The notes: generated from the sequence alone by a model not told the origin. Counted from the first letter of the stretch, positions 4,021-60,583 are shown. The stretch: 60,583 nt of DNA from an uncultured Bacteroidales bacterium (GCA_964418565.1 CAYQMB010000004.1:1-60583); one strand, 5' to 3'. Made by a program: numbers and translations.

Positions 4021-5397
4021 TTACGCTTTTTTAAGCTCAACCGTAAAGTGACGCATGATGGGGGCTTCCCATGTAATTTTATAGCCACTGGTGATTTCAT
4101 TGCGACGATCGAATACGTTTTTTAAAGCTACTGCAATCACATCCATGTGGTTTTGTGTATAAACCCGGCGTGGAATGGCCAGCCTCAGCAATTCCAGATC
4201 AGGGTAACGGTTTTTACGGGTTTTCGGGTCGCGGTCGGCTAATAGTGTGCCGATTTCAACACCACGTATTCCGGCTTCAAGATAAAGCTCAATGCCCAGT
4301 GTTTGTGCCTGTAGTTGTTCCTTTGGAACGTTGCAAAGCACTTTTTTGGCATCCACAAAAATGGCATGGCCGCCAATGGGTTGCTGAATCGGAACGCCAT
4401 ATTCGATCAGTTTGTTGCCCAGGTATTCCACCTGTTTGATGCGGGTTTCCAGGTAATTAAATTCAGTGCTTTCGTCCAGACCAACAGCCAGAGCGCTCAT
4501 ATCACGTCCTGACATACCGCCATACGTTACATAGCCTTCAAACATAATGTTGAAAGTGGATGCCTGACGATGCAGTTCCTTGTCGCGCATACCAATAAAG
4601 CCACCCATGTTGACGAGTCCGTCTTTTTTCGAGCTCATGGTCATCATGTCAGCGTACTGGTACATTTCGCGCACAATCTCCTTGATGCTTTTGTCGGAAT
4701 ATCCGTTTTCACGCAATTTGATGAAATACGCATTTTCTGCAAAACGAGCAGAGTCGAACATAGTAGGTATGCCGTATTTCTGACTCAATTCATAAACGGC
4801 TTTCAGGTTTTCGACGCTAACAGGTTGGCCTCCGCTTGAATTGCAGGTAACAGTAACACAAACAAAAGGTATTTTTTCTTTGGGGTAGGTTTTAAACACC
4901 TGCTCAAGCTTCTCAAGATCAATATTGCCTTTAAACGGATGCTCTGCAGTGGTGTCAAAGGCCTCATCAATGGTACAGTCAATAGCTGTAGCTTTGCGGA
5001 ATTCAATATGGCCTTTAGTGGTATCAAAATGCGAATTGCCGGGAATGACATCACCTTCTTTAACCAACACGCTGAACAATACATTTTCTGCAGCACGACC
5101 CTGGTGTGTCGGTAGCATATAAGGAAAACCTAAAATGCGTTCAATGGTGTCTTTCAGTTCGTAATAGGAGCGCGCACCAGCATAGCTTTCGTCGCCCATC
5201 ATCAAAGCAGACCACTGGCGATCACTCATGGCACCGGTACCGCTGTCGGTTAGCAGATCAATAAATACCTGATTGCTTTTTAAATTGAATAAATTGTAAT
5301 TGGCTTCTTTAATCCATGTTGCACGTTCCTCACGGGTACTTTTCCGTAAGGGTTCAACCATTTTAATTTTATACGATTCTGAGAATGGTAAATCCAT
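4021..5397 (-). CDS. tnaA: Tryptophanase (beta-eliminating lyase)
   Basis: IDLLTDSGTGAMS, GDESYAG, PLP-lysine motif SSKKDG, C-terminal MRHFT. N-terminus MDLPFSESYKIKMVEP resembles Bacteroides TnaA. Start moved from TTG 5427 to ATG 5397. Confidence 0.88.
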   Translation of the reverse strand: MDLPFSESYKIKMVEPLRKSTREERATWIKEANYNLFNLKSNQVFIDLLTDSGTGAMSDRQWSALMMGDESYAGARSYYELKDTIERILGFPYMLPTHQGRAAENVLFSVLVKEGDVIPGNSHFDTTKGHIEFRKATAIDCTIDEAFDTTAEHPFKGNIDLEKLEQVFKTYPKEKIPFVCVTVTCNSSGGQPVSVENLKAVYELSQKYGIPTMFDSARFAENAYFIKLRENGYSDKSIKEIVREMYQYADMMTMSSKKDGLVNMGGFIGMRDKELHRQASTFNIMFEGYVTYGGMSGRDMSALAVGLDESTEFNYLETRIKQVEYLGNKLIEYGVPIQQPIGGHAIFVDAKKVLCNVPKEQLQAQTLGIELYLEAGIRGVEIGTLLADRDPKTRKNRYPDLELLRLAIPRRVYTQNHMDVIAVALKNVFDRRNEITSGYKITWEAPIMRHFTVELKKA

Positions 5398-8942: not shown

Positions 8943-9040
8943 GTTGAGGGTTTGAGTTTTGAGTTATGAGTTTAGAGGTTTTGTAAAACTTTCAAACTTC
9001 AAACTTCAAACCTCAAACCTCAAACCTTCAACCTTCAAAT
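8942..9040. repeat. Inverted array of degenerate heptamer repeats
   Basis: About 5 units of the (T/G)TTTGAG type, central GTTTT-GT-AAAAC, then about 7 units of the C(T/C)TCAAA type. Confidence 0.75.
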
Positions 9041-25400: not shown

Positions 25401-28400
25401 TTATGACAGGCGCTCAGGATGCCGGTACAGATGACGGATGGGAGCAATGGAGTGATAACGACTGGTATTCTATGACAGGTGCCGGTTGGGGTGGCTCATT
25501 TAATATGGCCATTTACCCGGTTGTTTGTACCGAAGGTGCGCCTTTACCTGAATTTTCTGCAGATAATACAACCATCATGACCGGCGGTACTGTTAACTTT
25601 ACTGATATGAGTACTTGTGGTGCAACTGGTTGGGACTGGACGTTTGATGGCGGGACACCTGCCACCAGCACAAATCAGAACCCCTCCGTGGTGTACAATA
25701 CCCCGGGTACATTCGATGTTTCCCTGGTTTCTTCAAATGCTCAGGGTAGCAATCCTATGCAGAAGTCAAATTATATTACAGTTCTGCAACCCATTGTATG
25801 GTGGGATTTCCCCGGTAACCCGGATGATGCCCTCTCTGATGGCGGTATTACGGCTAACGATGGTACCAAATCCATTACTGTAGCAGGTGGTGTAGATGCT
25901 CCGACATTTGATGCCGGTGGTGCTACTACGCAGGCAGCTGAAGCCAGTGGCTGGGATGCTGGTGCCAACACCAAAGCATGGGTGGTTGAATTTGAAACTA
26001 CCAATTATGTGAATCTGAAATTATCATCAAAACAATCCGGTGAAAACCGTTCACCTCAGGATTTCAAAATTCAGTACAGCCTCGATAACGCTACATGGAC
26101 TGATGTTGCCGGTGGCACAATTACCGTAGCTCAGGATTGGACTACCGGTGTTGTCAACAGCCTTAGCTTGCCAGCTGCTTGTGAAAACCAGGCCAGTGTT
26201 TATATCCGTTGGATCATGACATCGAATACTGGTATAGGTGGCAACATTCAGGGTAATCGCTCCAGTTTTATTGATGACATTTATGTTGTTGGTGAACTGT
26301 CTGCCATACCCCCGGTTGCAGATTTTTCTGCTGATCAGACAACTGTCTGCGAAGGTGCAACAGTGAATTTTACTGACTTGTCAACAGAATCACCAACTTC
26401 ATGGTCATGGACATTTAATGGCGGAACACCGGCAACAAGTACTGCCCAGAACCCCTCTGTGGCTTACAATACAGCAGGTACGTATGAGGTGTCCTTGTCT
26501 GTTACAAACTCTGTTGGTGGAGATACAGAAACCAAAACAGGATACATTACGGTTAATACAAATCCAACTGTATCCGCGTCCAATACAGGTCCGTATTGTG
26601 AAACAGAAACCATTCAGCTCGGTGCTACCGGTTCAGGCGGTGATACATGGGCATGGACAGGTCCTGACGGATTTACAAATACTGCTGAAGATCCTAGCAT
26701 TGCAAACGCAACGCTGGCTATGGCCGGTGATTATACGGTTACGCATACCAATTCCACGACAGGTTGTTCTGCTCAGGCAACAACAGCCGTTACGGTCAAT
26801 GCTAACCCCGGTGTAACTACATCATACAATGGCCCGATATGCGAAGGTGACGATCTGTTGCTGAATGCAACACCAGGTACCGCAGGCCTTGATATTGCAT
26901 GGTCTGGTCCCGACGGCTTTACCAGTACAATTGAAGATCCTTCAATTACCGCGGTAACAACGGCTGCCGATGGTAACTATACTGTAGTTGCTACGGATCC
27001 CGGTACAGGTTGCTCCAGCCAGTCAACCATTTACGCATTTGTGAATGCCAATCCAACACTGACAGCCTCCAATACCGGCGCGTATTGTTCAGGTGAAGAT
27101 ATTCAGTTGAACGCTACCGGTTCAGGTGCTACAAGTTACAGCTGGGCAGGTCCTGACGGATTTACCAGTACAAATGAAGATCCGCTCATTGTATCTTCTA
27201 CAACAGCAATGGCGGGTACATATACCGTGGAGCTTGAAAATACAACCACTGGCTGTATTGCAACAGCGACAACCGATGTTGTTGTTAATCAGACTCCGGA
27301 CATCACCGCTGCTAACAGTGGCCCGCTTTGCGAAGGCGCTGACCTTACGCTGAACGCTACTACAAGTTTTGCAGGCATGGATTTCTCCTGGACTGGTCCC
27401 GATACTTACTCCAGTATTGCCGAGGATCCTGTAATTGTTGGTGCAACAACTGCTGCCGATGGAACGTATACCGTTGTGGTTACCGATCCCGGTTCAGGCT
27501 GTTCCAACACTGCAACCACTGCAGCTACAGTGAATGCCAATCCTACCCTGAATGCAGCAAATGCAGGACCGTATTGTGCCGGCGAAACCATTCAGCTCAG
27601 TGCTACCGGTTCAGGTGGGTCAGCCTATAGCTGGACAGGTCCTGATGGTTTTTCCAGTACAGCAGAGGATCCCACCATTGCATCAGCAACTACCGCTATG
27701 GCAGGTACCTATACGGTTACCCTTGAAAATACAACTACAGGTTGTAATACAAGCGCAACTACTGACGTAACAGTGAATCCGCAACCGGATATTACTGCCG
27801 CAAATGATGGCCCTGTTTGTGCCGGTGAAGACCTGACCCTTAACGCTACCAATATTTCAGGTGGTGTTGATTATGCATGGTCTGGTCCGGGCTTTACAAG
27901 CACGATTGAAGATCCTGTGATTACCGCAGCAACTACTGCAGCAGACGGATCTTATACCATTGTTGTCACCGATCAGGTAACTGGTTGTACAAGTTCAGCT
28001 TCCACAACAGCCGTTGTGAACGCTAATCCGACGATTTCGGCTGCTAATGACGGACCAGTTTGTGCTGGCGAAACTGTCAACCTTACAGCTACAGGAAGTG
28101 GTGGTGATGTATATAACTGGAATGGCCCGGATACTTACACCAGTAGTGTGCAGAATCCTTCCATTACAAATATACAACCCATTAATGCCGGTACATATAC
28201 AGTAAGCCTGGAAAACTCAACAACCGGTTGTGTCTCCAGTGCAACAACAGATATTACCGTTAATCCCCTGCCTGTTATCTCAAGTATTGGGAACACCGGT
28301 CTTTATTGTGAAAACGATAATGCTCAGCTTAATTCTACTGTTTCTGGTGGCGATACCTATGCATGGAGTGGTCCTGACGGATTTACCAGCAATGTTGAAG

Positions 28401-31400
28401 ATCCTGCTATCAACAATATACAACTTGTAAATGCAGGTGTTTATACATTAAATTACAGCAATTCTACCACCGGTTGTGCTGCTGTTTCTCAGACAACAAC
28501 TGTTGATGTAAATGCATTACCAACAGTTACACCGTCAAATACAGGCCCGTATTGTGAAGGTGATGCTATACAGCTCGAAGGAAATACCATTGCAGGTGCT
28601 ACATATGCCTGGAGTGGTCCGAATAGCTATTCCAGTACACAGGAGGATCCGGTGATTTCAGGTGCAGCTCTTTCTGATGCAGGTACCTATACCCTGGAAA
28701 TTACCAGTGCTGATGGTTGTACTGCGTTGTCAACAACTGATGTAGTGGTAGATGCCAATCCAATTGTTGATCTTGGTGCTGATGTCACACAGTGTTCCGG
28801 TACAAACCTTACCCTGGATGCCGGTGCCGGATTTGCAACCTATTCATGGTCAACAGGCGCAACCAGCCAGACCATAACGGTAAATACTGCGGCTACTTAC
28901 AGCGTAACAGTTAGCAATGCCAGTGGTTGTACTGATATTGATGCTTTGGTATTCGATTACTATCCGGAAACCACGCTTACCATGAGCAGCACCAATGAAT
29001 CATCTGCTGGCGCAAACGATGGTAGTGCAACGGCAACCCCTTCAGGTACATCACCATTTGATTACCTCTGGGATACAGGTGAAACTACTCAAACTATCAC
29101 AGGCTTAGCAGGTGGATTATATTACGTAACCGTTACGGATGGTAATGGATGCGAGGTTATTGATTTTGTAAATGTTGCAACAGACAATACGCCTCCGGTA
29201 GCTGATTTTAGCGCCGATGCCGTTAATGTGTGTGCGGGTACCATCATTAACTTTACTGATCTGAGTACAAACAGTCCAACATCATGGTCATGGGATTTCG
29301 ATGGAGGTGCTACAAACACTACCGTTCAGAATCCTTCTGTTGAATTTGCTGCGCCTGGTACCTATGATATCAGTCTGACAGTAACCAATGCTGACGGATC
29401 TGATACAGAAACCAAAACCGGATACATCACAGTATATGCAAATCCCAGCATTTCTGCTTCCAATGCCGGACCTTATTGCGAAGGCAATGATGTCCAGTTG
29501 AACGCTACCGGTTCAGGTGGTGATGCTTACACATGGAGTGGACCGAACGGATTTAACTCCACAACTGAGGATCCTGTGATTACTGCAGCTGGCTTAAGTG
29601 CGGCGGGTACATATACCGTTGAACTTCTCAATACATCAACAGGCTGTGTGTCTACTGCTACTACTGATGTAACAATCAATACCAACCCAACTGTAAGTGC
29701 ATCCAATACCGGAGCTTATTGTGAAGGTGAGGATGTGCAGATATCTGCTACAGGCAGTGGCGGAGATACATACAGCTGGACAGGGCCTGATGCTTTCACG
29801 GCTACTGGCTCTACACAGACCATTACTTCTGCAACTACAGCCGCAGACGGTATCTATGAAGTAACTTATGAAAACAGTACGACGGGTTGTTTCGCTACAG
29901 CACAGACAACTGTTGTTGTGAATCCGAACCCAACGCTTTCCGCTTCCAACACCGGCGAATATTGTCCTGGTGAAGTAATTGAGCTTAATGCTACCGGTTC
30001 CAATGGTAACAGTTACGAATGGAATGGACCTGATGGTTTCAACAGTTTTGTTGAAAATCCGACAATTACCAATGCTCAGGCGATAAATGCCGGTATTTAT
30101 ACCGTCGACCTTACCAATACGATTACAGGCTGTCAGGCAAGCGCTACTACAAACGTTGTAGTCAATAGTGTACCTGACATTACAGCAAGTAATTCTGGTC
30201 CGTATTGCGACGGTGATGATGTTGTACTCAATGCTGAAAGTGTATCCGGAGATGCTTTCATCTGGAATGGTCCGAACGGATTTAGTTCCGGTGCAGAGGA
30301 TCCGGTCATCACTGCGGCAGGAACCGCTTACGATGGAACCTATACGGTTGTGGTCAGCAATTCAACCACAGGATGTACTGCAAATGCGACAACAACTGTG
30401 GCCGTGAACGCCAATCCAGCACTTTCAGCTTCCAATACCGGTCCTTACTGTGAAGGCGATGATATCGCTCTGAATGCTACCGGCAGTGGAGGAACTGTTT
30501 ATTCATGGAATGGTCCTGACGGATTTACTTCCACAAGCGAAGATCCTGTGATTACAGGCTCGCTTGCTGCAAATGCAGGTGACTATTTTGTTACACTCGA
30601 AAACTCAGGTACAGGTTGTGCAGCAACTGTCTCAACTACGGTTAATGTGAATCCGAATCCTGTTGTAATGGCATCCAATTCTGGTCCGTATTGTGCTGGT
30701 GAGACTGCAGAGCTCTCAGCAACCGGTTCCGGTGGAGATACATACACATGGTCAGGGCCGGACTCATATTCAAACAGTGGACAAAACATCAGCATTACAG
30801 GTGCAAATGTTGCCAACAGCGGTACGTATACAGTAAACCTTGAAAATACAACCACCGGTTGTGTTGCCAGCGCCAATACTGTACTGGAAGTGAATGCTGT
30901 TCCTACGGCTACTGTCAGCAACACCGGAGCATACTGTGAAGGTGATGATGTTCAACTCAACTCTTCAGTATCTGGTGGAGATACCTGGAACTGGGCTGGT
31001 CCGAACGGATATACAAGTACCAGTTCTGATCCGCTTATTGCTTCAGCTACAACATCTGAAGGAGGCAGTTACACACTAACCTATAGCAATTCTTCCACAG
31101 GTTGTTCTGTAACGGCATCTACCAATGTTGTTGTGAATTCCAATCCCGTACTCATCGCTGATAATGATGGTCCTGCTTGTGTTGGTGATGTCATCAACCT
31201 GAGTGCAATGGGCAGCGGCGGCACTGATTATGCATGGACAGGTCCGAATACTTACTCAAGTACAGACCAGAATCCTGTTATATCAGGTGCTGCACTTGGT
31301 GATGCCGGAACTTACGATGTTGTGCTCACAAACACAACAACAGGTTGCCAGGCAAGTGCTTCAACGGTTGTTGAAGTGAATGCCAACCCAACTGTGGATC

Positions 31401-32971
31401 TTGGTGCTGATGTTGAAGTGTGTGATTATACAACCGTTACGCTTGATGCCGGTGCAGGTTACAATTACAACTGGTCTACAGGCGAGTTTACACAAACCAT
31501 CACACCCACAGTTTCCGATACCTATTCTGTTGTTGTTACAGATTCTGCATCGGGTTGTACAGCTACCGATCAGGTGCTTGTTACAATTAATGAGGCACCG
31601 GCTCTGACAACCAGCACAACGCCGGAATATGGTAGCAATGGTAATGATGGTACGGCTACTGTTTCTATCTCTGGTGGTGTTTCTCCATTCTCGACAATGT
31701 GGATTAACGGAGAAACCACAGAAACCATTACCGGTCTCAGTGGTGGAAGCTATAACGTAACTGTTCAAGATGCCAATGGTTGTACTGCAGCTGCCAGTGC
31801 TACTGTTAATACAGTGTTACTGCCACCGGTAACTGGCTTTACAGCCGATGTTACTGAAGGTTGTGCACCTCTTACAGTTAACTTTACGGATACAAGTACA
31901 AACAATCCGGTAAGCTGGACATGGAACTTTGGTGATGGTAATACTGCATCTGACCAAAACCCGACGCATACCTTTACCGATCCCGGTACCTACACGGTAG
32001 AACTTACTGCCACCAATGTGGACGGATCAGATAGTGAAACCATGATCATCACAGTTTATGATAATCCGGTGGTTGATCTTGGTGCTGATATCGATGCATG
32101 TATGGGCAGTACAGTTACCCTGGATGCCGGTGCTTATGCTGATTACATCTGGACAGGCGGCGAAACTACTCAGACAGTTGATCTCACATCAGATGCCGTT
32201 TATGGTGTTACTGTAACTGACGTAAACGGTTGCCAGGGAAGCGACGAGGTTAATGTTGCCTTCCATGCACTGCCCGATGTTGATCTTGGTGCTGACCAAA
32301 CCATCTGCGAAGGTGAAACGGTTACATTTGATGCCGGTACCGGTTATGATACATACAACTGGGCATCTGGTCAGGATACACAGACAATCACTGTGGGCAC
32401 ACAGGGTGAGTATGCTGTTGCCGTTACGGATACTTACGGATGCTCTGGTGGTGATACTGTCGCGTTGACAGTGAATCCGCTTCCGGTGCTTAACTTGCCG
32501 GACACAGCTATCTTAGCCTGTATCAATGATGTATTCGAATATACTCTTGAAAACACCTATGATGAAGTTATCTGGCCCGATGGCGAAACCGATCAGACAT
32601 ACAGTCATACATATACCGATGTCATGACAGATACGCTGTTAGTAACCGTTGGTAATAGTGGATGCTATGTAACAGATACCCTTATTGTGGATGCGCAATC
32701 CTGTAACTTTGTTGAAGAAAGCAAAGATATGAACCTCAGCCTTTACCCGAATCCGACATCTTCTGTTATTTATCTGGATATGAGTGGTTATCGTGGTGAG
32801 CTTGATGTACAGATTTTCAATGCGCAGGGTCAGCAGATTCGTGATGAATCTTATCAGTCTGATGGTGAGTTGAAACTTGATTTTGATATGTCACCATATG
32901 TACCTGGAGTGTATTTCTACAGAATAACTACTGAAGTTGAGACCTTCTATCATAAAGTGATAAGGCAATAA
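22436..32971 (+). CDS. Giant (3511 aa) T9SS-secreted lysyl-endopeptidase-like S1 serine protease with PKD, Ig-like and SprB-like repeats
   Basis: Signal peptide and propeptide; triad LTAFHC (His), SDFFLL (Asp), GGSSGSP (Ser); 6 PKD-like domains (PPxxxF...W.W.F.GG.P); 17 roughly 80-aa GPxC...TTGC repeats; 2 SprB-like repeats; CTD LYPNPTS...PGVYFYRI. Confidence 0.9.
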   Translation: MKFAKRFAFMARVMILFIIMGFAVNLNAQPSQGGTPPSFEEGRSINAVGNYSVDEISIYPPNVDALLLEDKNRGKNGLPPRVGTNVSVDAGLNTAGSWTTRPDGSRVWILKINSEGAIALNFIFDDFHLAPGTKMFMYNENKKQVLGAFTHNNNKEHGRFTTTKIQGETVFIEYFEPAKTVGTSRFHIESAGYFYNMSKQLARMTETYGDETSEKTVGASDDCEVNINCSPVGDDWQDEKRGVAQITFLAGGSWYLCTGSLVNNTNYDETPYFLTAFHCGAADATDTELLSWEFHFNYESPDCTDPAGEPATDDIIGATRIAEGNISGGSDFFLLQLESTPDGTFSPYYNGWDNSGTASATGAGIHHPAGDIKKISTYGSIAQSGSNNIGGDVMAANSSWSVTWESNANGWGVTEGGSSGSPLFRDNGLLIGTLTGGSSFCTDQTASDVYGRFEYHWTSNGGTAADQLEPWLDPANSGATTVGGYDPFATAPPTVDFTADRTNILEGDAVNYTDLSLSPSGPITGWSWAFDGGTPNTSTDENPANIVYNTAGEYDVSLAATNANGTSEDTAYNYINVIDPTVTTCDTFSQWCCNPSIYTSAEGYTSGTNEYGIQEVAEYFPDAYPYNTVTGARFYFAQVTSGTNPDITFKVYSDNAGQPDQVLTSTTVSLSTIETAFNADGYYDLVLPESVAYPDNAFYIGFTVPGTQASGDTIALVTNDDGDSDANTGYSLYDGTWETYSAWGMSLQNMVFPNVCHDVSLPPVASFEGVPQMVNAGSSVAFTDLSFGGTPTSWEWTFPGAATNSSTQQNPSITYNTPGVYDVKLVVSNANGADSITRSAYITVVDPNTCSCSQLGHVVGGEVLYTTGDGYLAGTNGYTDNAKAEYFDDYGSATKLEGAYFHFGRAYAANTGTMITFNVYADDGGASAAGTYTYSPGTILETVTVPLDDIVTDVNNGDSTYIAFDPPMDITGNFFIGYEIPYAGDSLGLMTGAQDAGTDDGWEQWSDNDWYSMTGAGWGGSFNMAIYPVVCTEGAPLPEFSADNTTIMTGGTVNFTDMSTCGATGWDWTFDGGTPATSTNQNPSVVYNTPGTFDVSLVSSNAQGSNPMQKSNYITVLQPIVWWDFPGNPDDALSDGGITANDGTKSITVAGGVDAPTFDAGGATTQAAEASGWDAGANTKAWVVEFETTNYVNLKLSSKQSGENRSPQDFKIQYSLDNATWTDVAGGTITVAQDWTTGVVNSLSLPAACENQASVYIRWIMTSNTGIGGNIQGNRSSFIDDIYVVGELSAIPPVADFSADQTTVCEGATVNFTDLSTESPTSWSWTFNGGTPATSTAQNPSVAYNTAGTYEVSLSVTNSVGGDTETKTGYITVNTNPTVSASNTGPYCETETIQLGATGSGGDTWAWTGPDGFTNTAEDPSIANATLAMAGDYTVTHTNSTTGCSAQATTAVTVNANPGVTTSYNGPICEGDDLLLNATPGTAGLDIAWSGPDGFTSTIEDPSITAVTTAADGNYTVVATDPGTGCSSQSTIYAFVNANPTLTASNTGAYCSGEDIQLNATGSGATSYSWAGPDGFTSTNEDPLIVSSTTAMAGTYTVELENTTTGCIATATTDVVVNQTPDITAANSGPLCEGADLTLNATTSFAGMDFSWTGPDTYSSIAEDPVIVGATTAADGTYTVVVTDPGSGCSNTATTAATVNANPTLNAANAGPYCAGETIQLSATGSGGSAYSWTGPDGFSSTAEDPTIASATTAMAGTYTVTLENTTTGCNTSATTDVTVNPQPDITAANDGPVCAGEDLTLNATNISGGVDYAWSGPGFTSTIEDPVITAATTAADGSYTIVVTDQVTGCTSSASTTAVVNANPTISAANDGPVCAGETVNLTATGSGGDVYNWNGPDTYTSSVQNPSITNIQPINAGTYTVSLENSTTGCVSSATTDITVNPLPVISSIGNTGLYCENDNAQLNSTVSGGDTYAWSGPDGFTSNVEDPAINNIQLVNAGVYTLNYSNSTTGCAAVSQTTTVDVNALPTVTPSNTGPYCEGDAIQLEGNTIAGATYAWSGPNSYSSTQEDPVISGAALSDAGTYTLEITSADGCTALSTTDVVVDANPIVDLGADVTQCSGTNLTLDAGAGFATYSWSTGATSQTITVNTAATYSVTVSNASGCTDIDALVFDYYPETTLTMSSTNESSAGANDGSATATPSGTSPFDYLWDTGETTQTITGLAGGLYYVTVTDGNGCEVIDFVNVATDNTPPVADFSADAVNVCAGTIINFTDLSTNSPTSWSWDFDGGATNTTVQNPSVEFAAPGTYDISLTVTNADGSDTETKTGYITVYANPSISASNAGPYCEGNDVQLNATGSGGDAYTWSGPNGFNSTTEDPVITAAGLSAAGTYTVELLNTSTGCVSTATTDVTINTNPTVSASNTGAYCEGEDVQISATGSGGDTYSWTGPDAFTATGSTQTITSATTAADGIYEVTYENSTTGCFATAQTTVVVNPNPTLSASNTGEYCPGEVIELNATGSNGNSYEWNGPDGFNSFVENPTITNAQAINAGIYTVDLTNTITGCQASATTNVVVNSVPDITASNSGPYCDGDDVVLNAESVSGDAFIWNGPNGFSSGAEDPVITAAGTAYDGTYTVVVSNSTTGCTANATTTVAVNANPALSASNTGPYCEGDDIALNATGSGGTVYSWNGPDGFTSTSEDPVITGSLAANAGDYFVTLENSGTGCAATVSTTVNVNPNPVVMASNSGPYCAGETAELSATGSGGDTYTWSGPDSYSNSGQNISITGANVANSGTYTVNLENTTTGCVASANTVLEVNAVPTATVSNTGAYCEGDDVQLNSSVSGGDTWNWAGPNGYTSTSSDPLIASATTSEGGSYTLTYSNSSTGCSVTASTNVVVNSNPVLIADNDGPACVGDVINLSAMGSGGTDYAWTGPNTYSSTDQNPVISGAALGDAGTYDVVLTNTTTGCQASASTVVEVNANPTVDLGADVEVCDYTTVTLDAGAGYNYNWSTGEFTQTITPTVSDTYSVVVTDSASGCTATDQVLVTINEAPALTTSTTPEYGSNGNDGTATVSISGGVSPFSTMWINGETTETITGLSGGSYNVTVQDANGCTAAASATVNTVLLPPVTGFTADVTEGCAPLTVNFTDTSTNNPVSWTWNFGDGNTASDQNPTHTFTDPGTYTVELTATNVDGSDSETMIITVYDNPVVDLGADIDACMGSTVTLDAGAYADYIWTGGETTQTVDLTSDAVYGVTVTDVNGCQGSDEVNVAFHALPDVDLGADQTICEGETVTFDAGTGYDTYNWASGQDTQTITVGTQGEYAVAVTDTYGCSGGDTVALTVNPLPVLNLPDTAILACINDVFEYTLENTYDEVIWPDGETDQTYSHTYTDVMTDTLLVTVGNSGCYVTDTLIVDAQSCNFVEESKDMNLSLYPNPTSSVIYLDMSGYRGELDVQIFNAQGQQIRDESYQSDGELKLDFDMSPYVPGVYFYRITTEVETFYHKVIRQ

Positions 32972-53421: not shown

Positions 53422-55905
53422 GTGATGGTTAGATGGCTTGGGCTTGTTTTTATATCTCTGCTAAGCAGCAGTATGCTTTTAGGGCAGCATTCGGTGAACG
53501 TAAACGGCCGGGTTATGGATGAAATGCAGAAACCTCTCCCTTATGCCAATATTGTGGTTGAAGGGCAGCCTCAGGGAGCCAGCAGCGATGAAAGCGGCCA
53601 TTTTTCCTTTTCCGTGATGACAGAGGATTCCCTTTATCTTACCATCAGTAGCCTGGGGTATAAAGATAAGCAATTAGGCTTTTCAACAAAGGGTGAGCGT
53701 GAACTTGAAGTTAATGTGGTGTTGGAGTTGGAGGTAAACCAATTGCCTACTGCTACTATTGAGGATAAATATGCCCGCAAAAGCGGCCTCACTCGCCTGA
53801 ACCCGAAAACACTGGAAACCCTCCCCAATACCGGTAGCTTTGAAGCTATTCTGAAAACCCTGCCCGGCGTAGCCTCCAACAACGAAATGAGCTCTCAGTA
53901 TCGTGTCAGAGGCGGAAACTTTGACGAGAATCTGGTGTATGTGAACGATGTACAGATTTACCGGCCGTTCCTGGTTCGTTCGGGGCAGCAGGAGGGACTG
54001 AGCTTTGTCAATTCCGACCTGGTTTCTTCTGTGATTTTTTCGGCTGGCGGGTTTAATGCAACTTACGGTGATAAATTGTCAAGCGTGCTTGATATCAAAT
54101 ACAAAAAACCCACCGAAAATGCAGCCGGTTTCTCTGCAAGTATGCTCGGCGGAAGCCTTTACGCTGAGGGAAGAAATAAAAACGGCTTGTTTTCATACCT
54201 TGTCGGGGCACGTTACAAAACAAACAAATACCTGCTGGGCAGCCTCGATACAGAAGGCCAGTATGACCCTGACTTTTCAGATGTGCAAACATGGCTGTCC
54301 TACGATTTCAGCGACCGCTTTGAAGTATCCTTTCTCGGCCATCTTGGCCAGAATACCTATCGCTTTGTTCCCGAAGACAGAGAAACTTCTTTCGGGACAA
54401 TCAACGAAGCGTATAAACTTAATATCTACTTTGACGGGCAGGAGAAAAACGCATTTACAAACGGTACCGGTGCCTTTACAGGTCGGTATCACCGTGGTGA
54501 TGACCTTGAGCTTAAATTTATTGCCAGTGGTTTTTTTACACGCGAAAAGGAGCGTTTCGACATCCTTGGCCAATATTACCTCAATAATCTGGAAAATAAC
54601 CTGGGTGAAGAAGATCTGGGCGACAGCATTTCCAATGTCGGCGTAGGCAGTTTTCTGAACCATGCAAACAATACCCTTGATGCCGCCGTGTTTAGCTTTA
54701 ACCATAAAGGTGAATACCGCATTGACGGGCACAGGCTATTCTGGGGTGCCGAATACCAGTTTGAAGACATCGATTATAAGTTGCACGAATGGAATATGAT
54801 TGATTCTGCCGGGTATTCGTTGCCTTATAGTGATGAAGAGGTATTGCTCTATTTTACCGACACCTCCAATTTTGATGTGTATTCCCACCGCATGAGCTTT
54901 TACGTCATGGATGAATATGATTTTACCATAGATAGTGCTGAAATTGGTCTTACCGGTGGCGTGAGGGGTAATTACTGGTCATTCAACGAGCAGTTTGTTT
55001 TTTCCCCAAGGGCAGCAGTATCATTGAAACCTCACTGGGAAAAAAATGTTATCCTGCGCCTTTCCGGAGGCCTGTATCATCAGCCACCTTTCTTTAAAGA
55101 ATTCATCCGCCGCGACGGTAGCCTGAATAAGGATATTGAAGCACAATCTTCTGCCCAGGTAGTGCTGGGTGGTGATTACCTTTTTACTGCCTGGGACAGA
55201 CCGTTTAAGCTTGTGGCTGAAGCTTATTACAAGCACATGTACAACCTTATACCCTACGAAATTGATAACGTGAGAATCCGGTACTATGGCGAAAATATGG
55301 CCAAAGGGTATGCCACCGGAATTGATATTAAACTCAACGGGGAGTTTGTTAAAGGAACGGAATCCTGGTTTAGCTTCTCTCTGATGCGGGCCCGCGAAGA
55401 TATTGAAGGTGACTTTTACGTTAACTGGTATGATGAAGATGGTGAGCAGGTTTTTGATGAAAATGATGCAGCCACAGCGGATACGGTTTTCCCGGGATAC
55501 TTGCCGCGACCCTCAGATCAACGTATTACAGCAGCTATATTTTTCCAGGATTACCTGCCCGGAAACCCAACCTGGAAAGCCCACCTGAACCTGGTATATG
55601 GCACAGGCCTGCCTTTTGGTCCTCCCAACAGCGAACGCTATATGGCTACCGGTAGACTTCCTGATTACCGCCGCGTTGATTTGGGGATATCCAAACAAAT
55701 TGTTACCGCTAAAACCGAATTTTCAGATACCAGCCCCTTGCGCTTTATTAAAGATTTCTGGATCAGCGTGGAAGTGTTTAATCTGCTGGATATCAATAAT
55801 ACCATATCTCACATCTGGATATCAGACATTTACGGTCGCCAGTATGCCATTCCCAATTACCTTACCGGCCGCCGCTTCAACCTGAAAATTAATATGAAAT
55901 TTTAA
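53422..55905 (+). CDS. TonB-dependent receptor-like OM protein with carboxypeptidase-regulatory-like N-domain
   Basis: Signal peptide; GRV.D...PLPYANI; plug motif YRVRGGNFDENLVYVND; GGFNATYGDKLSSVLDI; terminal barrel strand ending in F. Confidence 0.85.
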   Translation: MMVRWLGLVFISLLSSSMLLGQHSVNVNGRVMDEMQKPLPYANIVVEGQPQGASSDESGHFSFSVMTEDSLYLTISSLGYKDKQLGFSTKGERELEVNVVLELEVNQLPTATIEDKYARKSGLTRLNPKTLETLPNTGSFEAILKTLPGVASNNEMSSQYRVRGGNFDENLVYVNDVQIYRPFLVRSGQQEGLSFVNSDLVSSVIFSAGGFNATYGDKLSSVLDIKYKKPTENAAGFSASMLGGSLYAEGRNKNGLFSYLVGARYKTNKYLLGSLDTEGQYDPDFSDVQTWLSYDFSDRFEVSFLGHLGQNTYRFVPEDRETSFGTINEAYKLNIYFDGQEKNAFTNGTGAFTGRYHRGDDLELKFIASGFFTREKERFDILGQYYLNNLENNLGEEDLGDSISNVGVGSFLNHANNTLDAAVFSFNHKGEYRIDGHRLFWGAEYQFEDIDYKLHEWNMIDSAGYSLPYSDEEVLLYFTDTSNFDVYSHRMSFYVMDEYDFTIDSAEIGLTGGVRGNYWSFNEQFVFSPRAAVSLKPHWEKNVILRLSGGLYHQPPFFKEFIRRDGSLNKDIEAQSSAQVVLGGDYLFTAWDRPFKLVAEAYYKHMYNLIPYEIDNVRIRYYGENMAKGYATGIDIKLNGEFVKGTESWFSFSLMRAREDIEGDFYVNWYDEDGEQVFDENDAATADTVFPGYLPRPSDQRITAAIFFQDYLPGNPTWKAHLNLVYGTGLPFGPPNSERYMATGRLPDYRRVDLGISKQIVTAKTEFSDTSPLRFIKDFWISVEVFNLLDINNTISHIWISDIYGRQYAIPNYLTGRRFNLKINMKF

Positions 55906-56080
55906 GAGGGGTAGTGTGCTGCCTTCAGATTTTCAACCTTCTTGATATGAATGTTGTTTTTGCGAGCGCCTTAATGTCAGGCGTGTGCGCCGGAAAAGAG
56001 CATCATCAAAATCAAAAATATACCTGTATTTTCATGAGCGATAAGTTGATGTTATAACTAAATTGAGATTAAACAAACGT

Positions 56081-59000
56081 TTATTTTACACTAGCCTCCA
56101 CAATATCAATTTCATCGTCAGTTAAGCCATACAGCTCATACACAAGACGGTCAATTTCTTGCTCTAAGGCGGTGGTGTCAGTATTGTTTTTCTTAAGGTT
56201 TATTATTTTATTTGACTTGTCATCAATTTCTAAAACTAATTCACGATTGAATGATTTGCTTACAGGAATAATCTCAAGAATAGCGGGTTTGATTTGTGCT
56301 AATGTTCTTTTTTCTTCCATTGAAATTAAACGATAAAAATATGTGATTAGTTTAGAATTAAGAAACCCAATTAAAAATTCGTTACTGTAAATTCCATTAG
56401 ATGACAGTATAAAAATTCCATCTGTTGGATATAATTTATTGTAGTCAATGGAAACCGAGATTCTATCACTTGTTATCACACCAAGAATTTTACTGGGTTT
56501 TGTGAATATTTTTTGACTTCTAGCCCTATGTAAAGACCAAAAAGGATGTTTTCCTTGTTTTACTTCTCTACAATTTATGGAGTTTTTGAATCTTTCAAGA
56601 TAGTTAATAATGTTGGGTATTTTTGATTCATCATGAGTCTTCCTTGTATAAATTACATTCTTATCAATATCATGAACAAGGTATTTCTTTATGTCTCTGC
56701 CACCTGTAACAGTGGGAAATACATGAGCTAATTCAAGATTTTCATTTTTTATTGTCTGATTATCCACAATAAATGCTTGTTTTAAATCAGGACTTACTCC
56801 TCTTTGAATGCCATCTTCATCAATTAATTCATTGAGATTTGCTTCATTAAATCTTGAGATTATTTTGTAGCCATTTAAGTTTTTTGTAGCAAAAACGTAA
56901 TTTGGTAAAGTTTTAAAAATATTCGATTTTATAATAGTATTTGTAATTTGATTAATGCTTAATTTGGTTTTTTTACGATACTCAAAAACATTAGTTATGC
57001 TGTTAAAATATTTATCTTTAGCTATTACAATTATGCATGAAGGCCTTGCTACATCTTCAAAAATGTTATCTCCAAGGTTGACAGCCACACACAAATGATA
57101 CTCTTCAATTATTTTTTTACGAAGTTTCTTGTTGTCTATTTGATACAATAGTACGTCTGGTACTATTTGAGAAATAATCGCATTATTAGATGTAATTTTA
57201 AAACTTAAGTTTATAAAAAACATAAATGTATCAATCATGCGGACAATTATTTCTGAGTTCTCAGATTTGATTTTAATTAATTTATCCTGAGACAGTTTTA
57301 CACCCCATGGCGGATTCCCAATCACCACATCAAAGCCCACAAAATCACCGTCATCGTTGAGTACTTCGGGGAATTCAAAGCGCCACTCAAATGCATTTTT
57401 GTAAATTTTGTTTGTGCGTATGGCTTCAATTTCCTTTTCCAGCTTTTGAATGGATGTGGCAAGTTTATCCAGCTTTTTGTTCCACTCTGTTTTTTCCTTT
57501 TTTGATTTGTCAAAAAGCTGGGTTTGGTTGTGCATGGCAAACATTTCACCTTTTAACTTATTACGCTTGATAACCCGTTTGTCATTGGCCGCAATTTCGC
57601 TTTCAAATTCATCTTTTATTTGGTCAATAACCCTTTGCATTTCCCTCTTTTGTTCCTTGTTTTTTGCTTTGCGGTAGTTTGCAATATAATTGCGGTATGT
57701 GTCAATATTCCATTTGCTGTTTTTTAGAGCTTTTTTGATGTCAGCATCCAGTGGGTATCGGCTTATCAGCGAATTGCCACACTTAATATTAATGTCAATA
57801 TTCGGCAACGTTTCCAATTCCCGGGTCTTCCCTGAATTAAGGTAGTTTGTGTTTGCTGTTATCCTCTCATGGGGCTCCCCTTTATCTAAATATTGTTTAT
57901 CTGCAGTTCCTTCCCCCTGAGGCTCCCCTCCTTGATCAGGGTAGTTGTCCGTAGTTCCTTCCCCCTGAGGCTCCCCTCCTTCCAAAGGAGGGGTGTCCGA
58001 AGGACGGGGTGGTTTTTTCCCAAACTCACCTTTAATAATCTCCAAAACCGTTTCCTGATTTTCAAAAACCATCCTGTTTTCAAAACGCAGCACAGTAACA
58101 CCAAAATACTTCAAAAATAAATCCCTTTCACGGTCATATTCTTTTGCCTCAGGTGTATTATGCACTTCCCCGTCAAGTTCAATAGCAAGTTTTTCTGATG
58201 GACAGTAGAAATCTACAATATAGTTTCCAATGCTGTGCTGCCTTCTGAATTTCCTGCCTTCAAACTTTTTACCCTGCAGGGTTTTCCAGAGAGTAGCCTC
58301 GGCAGGAGTCATGTTTTTTCTCAGGTTTTTGCGAAATGTTTTTAGGTATGGGAGATTATTGAGTTTTTCATAACCCCTCCGTCCTTCGGACACCTCCCCT
58401 TTATGAGGGGAGGAGCTTTTGTAGTAAGCATTTTTTAGTAGTTCAATCCACAGACGAAGCCGGCAAATTTTTACTGAATTCGGGTTTATGTCAACTCCAA
58501 ACAAGCAATTTTCTATAATGGTTTGTTTTTCATGAAACAAGGTTTCCTGTACTCGTTGACTTTCACGGTTGTTGGGTTTGTACTCAAAGGGCTCGCCATC
58601 TTCATCGGTAACAACCAACTCATCATTGACCACTTCTGCCTGGTATTCTTTCAACCGTTTGCCTTTACGATCTGATAGAATTTTTAAATCGTTTTTTACG
58701 GCAATGATTTCATTGAGTGCTGAAACCAAAAAATGTCCCGATCCTACCGCCGGGTCGCATATTTTTATATTATTAATTATGGCGTTGGCTTCCGCTCTGT
58801 CTGACACTTCAAGTTTATTGTAAATGTCGTCAATGCTTTTGCAATTCCAACCTTTGGTCTCATTGAATTTTTGTACAACTGCCCGCCGTATGGTTTCTTT
58901 GGCCATGTACATGGTAATAAAACCCGGTGTAAAGAATGAGCCTTCTTTGTAACCATTGATTTTTTCAAAAATCAGCCCAAGTACAGAGGCATTTATCAGG

Positions 59001-60403
59001 GTTTTGTTTTCTTCCTGTATGTCTTCGCCACCTTCACTGGAAAAATCATAAGCATCTAAAAATTTAAACAGGTATTCCAGTGTGTTGATTCCTTCTTTTC
59101 TCCGTTTTCCCGTTTTGTCTTTCAGCACTGTTGTGGGTAATACAGGTAGATTAAACTCATCCTCAAGGTTGCTGATGCGTATGGTTTTATGTTCTAATTC
59201 GTTGGGTTCAAACAGTGAACTGTTGAGGTAGGGTATGTTGCCGAATTGACGTTTTACAATATCATTGCGTTCACTTTCTTTGATTGCCAAAACCTGAAAA
59301 AAAAGCTTGTTTAAGGCATCAAAATCCGGAATCCGTTCACTGTTCAGAAATTTGTAGTTATTATCACCAGCATGATATTTTATCAATTGCCCTTCCAGTA
59401 GCTTTAAAAATAAAATCCGGTTTATCCATGTAATTACCAGCTCCAGGGCAACACTGTAAATTTGTTCTTCTTTTGTGTTTCCATAATCATTGGATTTTAT
59501 TTGTGTCAGGCAGTCATCATATGTTAAAATCCGAATGGTATTTTCAATCAGAGAGCCTTCATTTCTTTTGTTTTCAGCTTTACGACCAATTAGTTTTTTG
59601 CTGCCTTTTTGGGATTCCTGCAATCCTATAATGTGCAATAACTCGGAATAAAATCCTTTGTCAAGACTATTGCTGTCGTTAGCAAAGGGAAGTTTTAACA
59701 TATTCTCTGGTGAGAAAAGTTTAAACAATGCTACCAGTTTTTTATCGTCCTGTTTGTTATTGTTGTTGATGATCTTTTCAAAATCACGTAGGTCAAGGTG
59801 AGTGACCGGTATCTTGTGGTCAAGCTCTTTTAAAAATGGTTTTGCTATATTTTTGTAGAAAAAGTTGGTTGTTGTTCCGGCCAGGCGCCCTTCTTCGAAA
59901 TCATTAAACTGTTTTACAAGTCTTTTGTTTTCGGCAAATAGTTTGTCAAATACCGTGGCATCAAAAATAAACCACTCATATATATTTGTGACAATCAGAT
60001 GTTTGACTTCGATGTTGTTGCCTGAAATTCTTTCACGCAAATAATACAACAACAATTCGTGCAGGGCTTTTGCATTCAGATTGTTTGTGTCCGGCATTTC
60101 TGATTTGTTTGCCGGGTTTTTTGTTTCAATCAGCACCCCAACTGAGGTGGATGCATCTTTTCCGTTGTGGATAACCAAATCGGTTCTGCCTTTGGTGTTT
60201 ATGTAATAATTGGGTGAATAATATGTATCACTCAAAAATTTACTGATGATATTTTTGTGGTGTTCTTCTGATTCCGATTCGTTTATCTGCTGGTATAAAT
60301 TGAGGATGTTTTTCTTGAAACGCTCAATTTGATTCCGGTTGGGCTTTACTCTTAAAAATGCTTTGTTGATGGATTTGCGTATAGTTAACTGGGCTGGTTT
60401 CAT
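56081..60403 (-). CDS. Type IIG restriction-modification enzyme (fused REase-MTase-TRD, Eco57I/Cj0031-like) carrying an in-frame DUF559 insertion
   Basis: PD-(D/E)xK motif GRTD...IETK; IPYLNSSLFE; LGLIFEKINGYKEGSFFTP; motif I DPAVGSGHFL; GVDIN; motif IV GNPPW; C-terminal EIDRLVYELYGLT. Confidence 0.9.
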   Translation of the reverse strand: MKPAQLTIRKSINKAFLRVKPNRNQIERFKKNILNLYQQINESESEEHHKNIISKFLSDTYYSPNYYINTKGRTDLVIHNGKDASTSVGVLIETKNPANKSEMPDTNNLNAKALHELLLYYLRERISGNNIEVKHLIVTNIYEWFIFDATVFDKLFAENKRLVKQFNDFEEGRLAGTTTNFFYKNIAKPFLKELDHKIPVTHLDLRDFEKIINNNNKQDDKKLVALFKLFSPENMLKLPFANDSNSLDKGFYSELLHIIGLQESQKGSKKLIGRKAENKRNEGSLIENTIRILTYDDCLTQIKSNDYGNTKEEQIYSVALELVITWINRILFLKLLEGQLIKYHAGDNNYKFLNSERIPDFDALNKLFFQVLAIKESERNDIVKRQFGNIPYLNSSLFEPNELEHKTIRISNLEDEFNLPVLPTTVLKDKTGKRRKEGINTLEYLFKFLDAYDFSSEGGEDIQEENKTLINASVLGLIFEKINGYKEGSFFTPGFITMYMAKETIRRAVVQKFNETKGWNCKSIDDIYNKLEVSDRAEANAIINNIKICDPAVGSGHFLVSALNEIIAVKNDLKILSDRKGKRLKEYQAEVVNDELVVTDEDGEPFEYKPNNRESQRVQETLFHEKQTIIENCLFGVDINPNSVKICRLRLWIELLKNAYYKSSSPHKGEVSEGRRGYEKLNNLPYLKTFRKNLRKNMTPAEATLWKTLQGKKFEGRKFRRQHSIGNYIVDFYCPSEKLAIELDGEVHNTPEAKEYDRERDLFLKYFGVTVLRFENRMVFENQETVLEIIKGEFGKKPPRPSDTPPLEGGEPQGEGTTDNYPDQGGEPQGEGTADKQYLDKGEPHERITANTNYLNSGKTRELETLPNIDINIKCGNSLISRYPLDADIKKALKNSKWNIDTYRNYIANYRKAKNKEQKREMQRVIDQIKDEFESEIAANDKRVIKRNKLKGEMFAMHNQTQLFDKSKKEKTEWNKKLDKLATSIQKLEKEIEAIRTNKIYKNAFEWRFEFPEVLNDDGDFVGFDVVIGNPPWGVKLSQDKLIKIKSENSEIIVRMIDTFMFFINLSFKITSNNAIISQIVPDVLLYQIDNKKLRKKIIEEYHLCVAVNLGDNIFEDVARPSCIIVIAKDKYFNSITNVFEYRKKTKLSINQITNTIIKSNIFKTLPNYVFATKNLNGYKIISRFNEANLNELIDEDGIQRGVSPDLKQAFIVDNQTIKNENLELAHVFPTVTGGRDIKKYLVHDIDKNVIYTRKTHDESKIPNIINYLERFKNSINCREVKQGKHPFWSLHRARSQKIFTKPSKILGVITSDRISVSIDYNKLYPTDGIFILSSNGIYSNEFLIGFLNSKLITYFYRLISMEEKRTLAQIKPAILEIIPVSKSFNRELVLEIDDKSNKIINLKKNNTDTTALEQEIDRLVYELYGLTDDEIDIVEASVK
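57857..57981. repeat. 48-bp-period tandem repeats (two identical 29-mers plus a degenerate third copy)
   Basis: AGTTCCTTCCCCCTGAGGCTCCCCTCCTT at 57905-57933 and 57953-57981; degenerate copy from about 57857. Encodes GGEPQGEGT twice and KGEPHER. Confidence 0.85.
57970..58416 (-). mobile_element. Candidate in-frame mobile cassette: 43-bp TIR - DUF559 endonuclease - 43-bp TIR (447 bp)
   Basis: TIRs at 57970-58012 and 58374-58416 (34/43 identical in inverted orientation). Enclosed RKNMTPAEATLW...FRRQHSIGNYIVDFYC...IELDGEVH...RERD...LRFEN is a DUF559 signature. 447 bp = 149 codons. Confidence 0.7.
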
Positions 60404-60583
60404 AAGGTTTAATATGAATTTTAAAATTTAAAAGTACAAAAAAGCGGTTAGAAAACGTATTGTATAGTGAAAACTTTTACATCTTATCAATGCAGATTTC
60501 GTATGACTATGTTAGAGTCAGGTTTAGTACAATTGCATGTAAATGCTTACCCCTCATACCGCCCCCGCACAGCCAGTTTTTCC

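Follow-up and report, generated by a model that had tools for sequence, protein, structure and literature searches.

The last gene of a 60,583-nucleotide (nt) stretch of DNA from an uncultured Bacteroidales bacterium (GCA_964418565.1, CAYQMB010000004.1:1-60583; this whole stretch is called the window below) encodes a Type IIG restriction-modification (RM) enzyme of 1440 amino acids (aa), which has a DUF559 nuclease domain in its middle, bracketed by an inverted repeat made of hairpins. The question raised by this locus is whether the domain is a working part of the enzyme, or an element of a different kind that is translated together with it. With a probability of about 0.62 we favor the second possibility, namely that this is a composite nuclease cassette, selfish at present or in the past, that lies in frame, is not removed by splicing and is built on hairpin modules that resemble repetitive extragenic palindromes (REP) and Rickettsia palindromic elements (RPE). 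Comparison of homologs shows that the domain was inserted, the closest relatives lacking the cassette, that related cassettes occupy different genes and different sites, and that the hairpins are conserved as structures. We infer that the DUF559 nuclease itself moves the cassette.

The host gene occupies positions 56081..60403 on the minus strand (open reading frame (ORF) call) and lies 180 nt from the end of the window. The encoded protein consists of an N-terminal DUF7149 domain with a D...ExK-like motif, DUF7814, a gamma-type N6-adenine methyltransferase and a TaqI_C-like specificity domain, in this order. The Pfam matches are DUF7149, DUF7814, Eco57I, N6_Mtase and TaqI_C, plus DUF559 in mid-protein. 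The motif TDLVI...LIETK of the N-terminal nuclease-type domain and the NPPW motif of the methyltransferase (GNPPWG) can be read directly from the translation. Judged by this domain content, the host is a Type IIG enzyme, one polypeptide with a nuclease-type N-terminus, a gamma-type methyltransferase and a specificity domain. PADLOC identifies it as REase_MTase_IIG (E 1e-236), and the match to this 1247-position profile is interrupted at aa 664.

The borders of the insert follow from DNA comparison with empty homologs. The whole inserted tract is 57839..58417 on the minus strand (aa 663-855; 579 nt, 193 codons), with NAYYK on one side and NSGKTR-ELETLPN on the other. Within it, an inverted repeat with arms at 57970-58014 and 58372-58416 (45 nt each, 80% complementary, 357 nt apart) encloses the DUF559 domain; this is the same repeat that had been matched at 34 of 43 positions in an earlier reading of the window made from the sequence only. 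The segment 57970-58416 is 447 nt, or 149 codons, so that the frame is kept, and it is read through with both ends translated, as the sequence-only reading had quoted them. That reading had also taken the 447-bp segment for a complete unit. Its length and frame are correct, but it is not self-contained, as further degenerate module copies are present at the site. The 16-mer GGTGTCCGAAGGACGG has two exact copies in the 60.6-kb window, both in the repeat arms, against 0.22 copies expected by chance even with up to three mismatches allowed.

Each arm is a module of two hairpins. In the upstream module (5' in the gene; 58372..58416, minus strand; translated as SSSPHKGEVSEGRRG, inner motif GGAGGGGT), positions 58406-58413 pair with 58393-58400 to form the first hairpin (CCTCCCCT / AGGGGAGG), and 58387-58390 pair with 58378-58381 to form the second one (GTCC-GAA-GGAC). 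The downstream module (3' in the gene; 57970..58014, plus strand; gene-strand translation PPRPSDTPPLEGGE, inner motif GGGGTGGTT) is inverted relative to it. Its first hairpin is formed by 57973-57981 and 57985-57993 (CCCCTCCTT / AAGGAGGGG), and its second hairpin, at 57996-58008, is again GTCC-GAA-GGAC. When folded as single strands, both arms form a first hairpin of 9 or 8 bp and a short second one, GTCC/GGAC. Their folding energies, -12.1 and -12.2 kcal/mol, correspond to z-scores of -2.2 and -3.5 relative to shuffled sequences. Since both first hairpins are perfectly self-complementary, the differences between the two ends are compensatory, in agreement with what had been noticed initially. 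Between the modules lies the DUF559 / Vsr-like nuclease core (58031..58342, minus strand; aa 688-791), which has neither its own start codon nor its own stop codon. Outside the downstream module, positions 57870..57969 (plus strand) contain degenerate partial copies of its outer part, translated as GGEPQGEGT... repeats. Tandem Repeats Finder reports a 48-nt period repeated 2.0 times at 57905-57999, with the reference copy at 57897-57944, and there is a weaker copy at 57870-57890. The stretch 57870..57969 now folds no better than shuffled sequences (z = -1.3). A homologous decayed flank is also kept in the closest homolog, L001.

The insertion site was compared in the best 120 homologs of the host protein. 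About 85 of these are approximately 1240 aa long and have 12-15 residues between the anchor motifs, typically NAYYK-NxT-ELET; this agrees with relatives of roughly 1250 aa with few residues at the site, which the sequence-only reading had stated. Examples of empty sites are NAYYK-NGTE-ELET (L085) and NAYYK-NNT-ELET (L086). At the DNA level one such site reads AAT GCT TAT TAC AAA AAC GGA ACC GAA GAA CTT GAA ACC (empty-site sequence TATTACAAAAACGGAACCGAAGAACTT). Empty sites of constant length span Cyanobacteria, Proteobacteria and Bacteroidota. In 33 homologs a DUF559 domain is found at the same site, flanked by hairpin-encoded peptides such as SSSPNIGEVSEGRRG, SPPLKGGVPEGGGG and QPPRPSDTPPYKGGE, and about 16 sites (of 118 homologs) hold short inserts. 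Since most members of the host family have no DUF559, this domain is dispensable for restriction.

When the host proteins are compared with the insert removed, the window copy clusters with the protein P0002 amid empty-site proteins, apart from the main filled cluster, and filled sites in general fall in several clusters (simple distance clustering, not a full phylogeny). P0002, the closest homolog, is 93% identical to the window protein over the N-terminal half and contains no DUF559; its site reads AGCCCCTCCCCTGATAAAGGAGGGGAGCCTCAGG. At the DNA level this is a hybrid hairpin, its left half coming from the upstream first hairpin and its right half from the downstream one, with the joint inside AAAGG; the decayed flank seen in the window follows. 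Since the first hairpins are palindromic, their two copies can be read both as direct and as inverted repeats, and hence recombination or slippage between them deletes the intervening DNA. P0002 may be a footprint of cassette loss, or, equally, may represent a solo-hairpin state that gave rise to the filled allele by the reverse reaction. In either case, the structure of the junction shows that the filled and solo states are connected via recombination between the two first hairpins. The insertion proposed at the outset is supported by the nearest relatives, which are empty or carry a footprint.

Short peptides encoded by hairpin-like or other palindromic elements are present in the same loop of other family members (P0018, P0019, P0023, P0037, P0108), and thus the loop is generally permissive. 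Recurrent insertions, together with the predicted disorder of the repeat-encoded linkers, suggest that the site is a surface loop. In P0019, P0037, P0108, P0111 and P0098 the loop holds peptides typical of other palindromic repeat families, for example ..AELDSASA..LKQVQGDG.. and repeated EDPPQPPLERGASPLPSF; this loop of the host family is a general sink for small palindromic insertions.

A second site is used in the same type of enzyme. In P0005, which belongs to the same host family, the cassette (aa ~534-748) separates methyltransferase motifs X (F-x-T-P) and I (D-P-A-x-G-S-G). The loop that joins these two motifs is also filled in L009 (aa ~517-690), L010, L017 and P0124; the last is a methylase fragment with a cassette, and its source contig was not found. 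Judged from these alignments, the loop is a second recurrent cassette site in gamma-type methyltransferases. The L009 protein combines both situations: besides its full cassette, it carries in frame a solo module without DUF559 (nt ~4890-4940) at the loop homologous to the site in the window.

The DUF559 core belongs to a well-defined nuclease family. Pfam DUF559 (PF04480) matches aa 688-791 with E 3.7e-32 (110.9 bits, the cut-off being 20.6), covering positions 4-105 of the 109-position profile. There is also an NCBIfam match to PRK09767 (E 8e-24), under the equivalog cut-off. The only match in the PDB by sequence is 3HRL (E 2e-17). In the AlphaFold model, residues 20-133 of the insert have pLDDT >90, and the hairpin-encoded ends (insert residues 1-15 and 135-149) have no predicted structure, with pLDDT below ~55. 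Foldseek retrieves the DUF559 structure 3HRL (TM-score 0.85), the catalytic domain of I-Bth0305I (3R3P, TM-score 0.75) and Vsr (1VSR). The domain is therefore, by profile and by modeled fold, DUF559 with a Vsr-like fold and conserved acidic and histidine residues, and its initial assignment to this family is borne out by both. In an alignment of 35 sequences, 33 residues are invariant, including E40, D69, E80, D82, H86 and D95 (insert numbering); the window copy is one of the 35, and so has these residues by definition. By motif order, the set E40...D95 probably corresponds to E25, D51, H69 and D97 of Vsr and to the active site of the EDxHD enzymes.

Pfam finds no DNA-binding domain beyond the DUF559 core of ~110 aa, and no Hint or intein family in the insert. 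An intein would have Cys, Ser or Thr at each of its two junctions and end in Asn; the junctions here, ..YYK|SSSP.. and ..GGE|PQGE.., have no such nucleophiles. Because the Hint domain and the junction nucleophiles are both missing, the insert must remain in the mature protein. There is no intron at the insert either, judged by the absence of Rfam matches.

The same modules flank DUF559 genes at many other loci, and their alignment reveals a common plan. A module is ~45-60 nt long. It is composed of an A-run with AGCT, then the first hairpin, which is conserved, the dinucleotide TG, a second hairpin whose sequence is free, and (C)GGGGTGGT. The sequence of the first hairpin is CCCCTCCTT/AAGGAGGGG; its variants are CCTCCCCT, CTCCTCC and CCTTCCCT, and the inner motif GGAGGGGT goes with the variant CCTCCCCT. 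The upstream module of the window was aligned with 33 other modules, and its pairing is backed by covariation. In the 34 aligned modules, 96.8% of the cells are paired, and sliding the pairing partners reduces this to 46-67%. Double-sided changes are observed in 35 cells, compared to 8.2 in shuffles; none of the 500 shuffles reaches 35. The second-hairpin regions are even more telling: there are 103 different ones, with stems of 3-12 bp, most of them clean hairpins, and all lie between conserved brackets. By this comparison, the second hairpin is stronger evidence for structural conservation than that covariation. No Rfam family matches the modules of the window or of six other loci.

Within an element, the two ends often match each other almost perfectly and yet are unlike those of other elements (L032-L034, L054, L060). 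Gene conversion between neighboring inverted repeats could account for this, as could a copying step. The modules are not adapted to being translated in any frame: 3 of 107 are stop-free in all six frames, the same rate as in shuffles. Thus freedom from stops is not a property of the modules, and the open gene-resident copies are best seen as survivors of selection. An automatic tally of module order gave left module, gene, right module as the commonest arrangement (13 loci); the detector mis-scored variant modules, including those of the window, and these counts are not relied upon. Tandem arrays were seen beside DUF559 at several loci. L029 (4650-5250) has four tandem units of ~195 nt, each with a module. 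A long array of ~130-nt units with first-hairpin palindromes occupies positions 4660-6550 of L045, a locus from a Kapabacteria chromosome. Just past the right end of the element in L022 there is a 9-nt tandem run, GGGGAGCTT.

The modules also form a dispersed repeat family of their own, some members of which lie in frame within proteins, as expected from the comparison with REP and RPE made in the sequence-only reading. In the DUF559 loci, 131 of the 165 first-hairpin palindromes lie within 250 nt of DUF559, an approximately 30-fold enrichment. A scan with an exact module pattern matched at least 120 metagenome contigs and 19 viral contigs. Among the 150 modules in the matches listed, DUF559 was found within 250 nt of four and was absent near 121, and 25 were too near the contig end. 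Most solo modules are intergenic, often just past a stop codon, and module pairs without a gene are 125-190 nt long. In-frame solo modules were found in UvrC, an MmeI-type enzyme, a xanthine-dehydrogenase-like protein (an FAD-binding dehydrogenase subunit) and a two-partner secretion (TPS) exoprotein, and also in L026 and L009. A gut metagenome contig, L092, has at nt ~730-775 a solo module nearly identical to the downstream end of the window element (CCCCTCCTTCTGGAAGGAGGGGTGTCCGAAGGACGGGGTGGT), with a divergent partner module ~100 nt off and no DUF559.

When the insert alone was used as a query, its closest relatives (55-70% identity) were short DUF559 proteins from many phyla, most of which carry the same hairpin-encoded peptides at the N- and C-termini. 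A scan of one genome per species yielded 578 relatives, and the loci of the best 80 were analyzed. These come from Bacteroidota, Acidobacteriota, Planctomycetota, Verrucomicrobiota, Ignavibacteriota, Marinimicrobia, Proteobacteria and other phyla. The majority of the cassettes are intergenic copies with their own start and stop; for example, in L070, L068, L055 and L033 both the ATG and the stop codon of DUF559 lie between the modules. At 19 of these 80 loci, hundreds of codons on either side of DUF559 are open in the same frame. These gene-resident copies have no ATG and no stop of their own and are read through from the host.

According to Pfam, the in-frame hosts are several Type IIG families, Type ISP enzymes (in the C-terminal specificity domain), urocanase and methionine synthase (MetH). 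In urocanase, compared to a solved structure, the cassette replaces ~6 residues, and the remainder aligns end to end. A profile search of 1.8 billion cluster representatives retrieved 19,051 proteins at E <= 1e-10. The top 150 of these add HsdS, a class I aminoacyl-tRNA synthetase, HPPK and a SpoIIE/TPR protein to the list of hosts; in HsdS the cassette lies, in many cases, between the two target-recognition domains. This sample of hosts is biased towards cassettes resembling that of the window. Cassettes may be present more than once in a protein: the Type IIG enzyme P0253 (1214 aa) has two, at aa 560-643 and 1072-1177. The short protein P0241 (377 aa) is made up entirely of three tandem DUF559 domains. 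Insertion need not preserve the frame, as in L002 (3613-5774), from a Fulvivirga-like metagenome-assembled genome, where a frameshifted cassette splits hsdM into two overlapping ORFs, the second of which consists of DUF559 and the C-terminus of HsdM. At this locus a HEPN-like gene lies between hsdM and hsdS.

An element composed of DUF559 between terminal inverted repeats, as postulated from the window, is thus seen elsewhere in that the same ends flank DUF559 at other loci, but the order and orientation of the modules vary between loci. On the three points that the sequence-only reading had itself singled out as decisive, homologs with an empty site exist, the ends recur beside DUF559 at unrelated places, and the profile search gives DUF559.

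Movement of the cassette between sites is indicated by several comparisons. The DUF559 core of L009 is 86% identical to cores of the DUF7149 family, although the host proteins share no more than 23-27% identity, found in the methyltransferase motifs, and differ in the site of insertion. The core in the window is 74% identical to stand-alone genes versus 72% to the same-site cores of its own host family. In two cases a pair of loci belongs to one assembly (L021 and L026; L033 and L034). The order of elements in urocanase is right-type module, SAAVA, left-type module, DUF559, right-type module, the right-type copies being near-identical direct repeats; L055 has the same module order, and L070 is its mirror image. 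Such an order is what a single crossover between a solo target module and an end-joined cassette would give, and is suggestive of that event. In the pair L075 and L076 (Aggregatimonas and Maribacter) the flanks align at 73-80% identity, and the cassette region between them cannot be aligned by blastn; this cassette may either evolve faster than its surroundings or have been replaced.

These data suggest the following scheme. The nuclease is made as an internal domain of the RM enzyme, joined to it by Gly/Pro/Ser-rich linkers that are translated hairpins. It might recognize or cut the modules in hairpin or cruciform form, and the breaks would then be repaired by copying or recombining between modules. 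Solo modules would serve as landing pads, by which the cassette could spread. Inside genes, only stop-free in-frame copies in permissive loops would persist. The presence of one cassette type at many unrelated sites fits poorly to a single fixed recognition site.

Several observations weigh against a selfish mobile cassette. All-against-all blastn of 82 cassette regions found no cassettes at least 95% identical at different loci, and the highest nucleotide matches were mostly between orthologous loci; hence many copies, both in genes and between genes, are vertically inherited. Comparison of the outer flanks of filled sites with three empty-site homologs revealed no target-site duplication or direct repeat. 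The sequence-only reading had seen neither a duplication nor a transposase; a duplication is not definable here because the outer ends AAAAGCT and AGCTTTT are complementary to each other, and AGCT belongs to the palindrome, and Pfam gives no known transposase family. No further module copy occurs in the 60.6-kb window, where the first-hairpin 24-mer also has no other copy. The modules face outward from DUF559 in the Pontibacter loci L068, L069 and L080, and extra or tandem modules occur at other loci, the number of modules being variable; so a simple transposon with a left end, a gene and a right end does not fit all copies. In these three loci and in a further Pontibacter locus, L049, the inner motif points away from DUF559 and the second hairpin is absent. 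No cleavage, excision or insertion event was observed, movement being read from comparison of sequences. Finally, RM genes are most of the in-gene hosts found, and modules outnumber DUF559 approximately 30 to 1 among the matches listed. Each of the last two points leads to a different explanation of the locus.

The most serious rival is functional recruitment, in which RM proteins repeatedly acquire DUF559 as a useful accessory nuclease, for example for extra nicking or cleavage, and the hairpin modules are recombination-prone joints easing domain shuffling; this is compatible with a selfish origin of the cassette. The prevalence of Type IIG, Type ISP, HsdS and HsdM proteins among the in-gene hosts could mean exactly this, and a whole cluster of the host family keeps the cassette at the site, with family-invariant residues of the active-site type retained. 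Moreover, a core of ~110 aa has no DNA-binding domain of its own, whereas I-Bth0305I needs its NUMOD and helix-turn-helix (HTH) domains for targeting. On the other hand, the host already has an N-terminal nuclease-type domain, and most members of the family work without DUF559; the closest relatives lack the cassette or have lost it. Urocanase, MetH, the tRNA synthetase and HPPK have no obvious use for a DNA nuclease, and copies with their own start and stop between genes are the majority. On balance we consider recruitment unlikely as the main explanation. The excess of modules, 121 of the 125 assessable ones having no DUF559 nearby, means that another enzyme could move them. It thus points to the possibility that the modules propagate by themselves, whether through some other enzyme or through repair and replication at palindromes, and that DUF559 is their cargo or a host gene; in a variant of this explanation, DUF559 processes hairpins or cruciforms and is kept beside its substrates, like the RAYT genes (encoding REP-associated tyrosine transposases) among REPs. 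This would account for solo modules being mostly intergenic and often past stop codons, for the varying orientation and number of modules around DUF559, and for the syntenic, vertically inherited stand-alone DUF559 loci in Flavobacteriaceae, and it has a parallel in the CGTC-tagged REPs, for which Di Nocera et al. found no dedicated transposase (PMC3733652). However, DUF559 has clearly moved into different genes as one unit with the modules that flank it, the palindromes are enriched near DUF559, and no other candidate gene is seen near the modules. We regard such an origin as unlikely, and slightly less probable than recruitment.

Two further explanations concern the window itself. An inverted repeat within an RM gene could be a programmed switch, in which a recombinase flips the 447-bp segment and turns the gene off and on, and "DUF559 domain-containing protein" is indeed among the annotations enriched in predicted targets of programmed inversion (PMC9881135). 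This candidate was rejected, because the flipped segment has eight in-frame stops and so could produce an OFF state only. In addition, the arms are short and only 80% matched, the same architecture is found around intergenic DUF559 genes and in housekeeping enzymes, and the region 54000-60583, which is seen up to 180 nt beyond the gene, contains no ORF of recombinase size (>=80 aa). An inversion switch is thus very improbable. Even less credible is that DUF559 is an ancestral domain of the family next to a chance inverted repeat. Many family members do carry it at this site, but the constant-length empty sites in three phyla and the recurrence of the repeat, with covariation, at dozens of unrelated loci refute this, and the low number of chance copies expected for the 16-mer also speaks against it. 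A selfish or formerly selfish cassette thus remains the explanation that we prefer.

Two features of the window lie apart from the cassette. The largest ORF by far encodes 3511 aa (22436-32971, plus strand). Between ORFs, at 8951-9039, there are two adjacent arrays of 7-nt tandem repeats, TTTGAGT (4.6 copies) and AAACTTC (7.4 copies).

If the cassette is what we suppose, it would explain the odd DUF559 architectures seen in databases (RM enzymes, HsdS, tRNA synthetases, MetH) and the recurring low-complexity peptides SPPxKGGV..GRGG and PPRPxDTPPxxGGE of metagenomic proteins. Its positions would provide natural permissive insertion sites, with linkers, in Type I, IIG and ISP restriction enzymes. 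It would be tolerated because it lands in loops and brings flexible linkers, the translated hairpins. There would then also be a third way for a nuclease gene to reside within a host gene: introns are removed at the level of RNA, inteins at the level of protein, and the cassette would never be removed. Moreover, a class of REP/RPE-like repeats without an enzyme would acquire a testable candidate for one. For annotation, proteins carrying the cassette should not be called bifunctional without evidence. We found no literature description of a Vsr-like nuclease frame that lies between inverted two-hairpin modules and is kept unspliced in proteins, the journal coverage of the search being incomplete; the combination has apparently not been described before.

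Its separate properties have parallels in several known systems. As in inteins with homing endonucleases, the insert is in frame, has no start or stop of its own, and the nuclease is expressed within the host protein; at a given site some homologs have the insert and others do not, and conserved proteins such as MetH, aminoacyl-tRNA synthetases and urocanase are among the hosts. Unlike inteins, the cassette has no Hint domain and no nucleophiles at the junctions (K|S, E|P), and it has DNA hairpins at its borders. Homing endonuclease genes, too, typically have filled and empty alleles at one site in different homologs. Among these, the closest are the EDxHD enzymes: I-Bth0305I is a Vsr-like homing endonuclease of this group (PMC3239194), and related endonucleases are known from "fractured genes" (PMC2677866). 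They have the same nuclease fold (TM-score 0.75) and the same kind of catalytic residues, and provide a proven precedent of homing. However, they have NUMOD or HTH domains and reside in group I introns or between the halves of split inteins, whereas the cassette is a bare catalytic core flanked by hairpins, with no intron. Insertion sequences and miniature inverted-repeat transposable elements share with it the terminal inverted repeats around a gene and short derivatives without the gene, here the module pairs. They differ in that the cassette has no DDE, serine or tyrosine transposase and no definable target-site duplication, and each of its ends consists of two hairpins.

The closest known parallels of the modules themselves are palindromic repeats. 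Examples of in-frame palindromic elements are the RPEs of Rickettsia and, in methylases and repair genes, intragenic REPs of the GTAG and CGTC types (PMC3733652). The CGTC-tagged REPs (which include RPE-4, RPE-6, Neisseria dRS3 and repeats of Gramella forsetii) "lack a dedicated transposase" (Di Nocera et al. 2013, PMC3733652). G. forsetii is a relative of two loci of this study. Like these repeats, the modules are short palindromes present in many copies, mostly intergenic, sometimes in frame in repair and methylase genes, and often arranged as inverted dimers. The published grammar of CGTC REPs is an unpaired CGTC end, a stem of 8-9 bp starting with A-T pairs, a loop of 4-5 nt and a CCA tail (PMC3733652). 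CGTC marks the inner end of this second hairpin in 54 modules out of 107, a ..GCCA tail is present in 45 out of 107, and several long second hairpins fit this grammar fully, for instance CGTC-ATCCCGAC...GTCGGGAT-GCCA in L052. In a comparison with the published text, the second hairpin of the window, with a 4-bp stem overlapped by CGTC, a 3-nt loop and no CCA tail, fits it in part. Unlike the non-coding RPEs and CGTC REPs, here an inverted pair of modules encloses a nuclease frame, and this unit is found in different genes. The conserved CCCCTCC/GGAGGGG hairpin does not figure in the textual description of the CGTC REP families (PMC3733652).

The arrangement as a whole is analogous to the REP/REPIN-RAYT system. 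In both cases an enzyme gene lies between inverted hairpin repeats, the repeats are far commoner elsewhere, and many of the enzyme loci are inherited vertically. The differences are that the enzyme is a Vsr-like PD-(D/E)XK nuclease and not an HUH (Y1, IS200/IS605-like) tyrosine transposase; that the inner tag of the modules is CGTC, CGCC or CGGC and not GTAG; that the module sequence is kept across phyla, whereas REPINs are lineage-specific; and that the unit of enzyme and repeats occurs in frame inside genes. It is possible, though we would rather doubt it at present, that DUF559/Vsr-like nucleases are the dedicated enzymes of a cross-phylum superfamily of two-hairpin repeats overlapping the CGTC-tagged REPs, which would be a second arrangement of the REPIN-RAYT kind. 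As part of the same tentative proposal, the autonomous form would also live in proteins as a non-splicing, intein-like domain with hairpin-encoded linkers.

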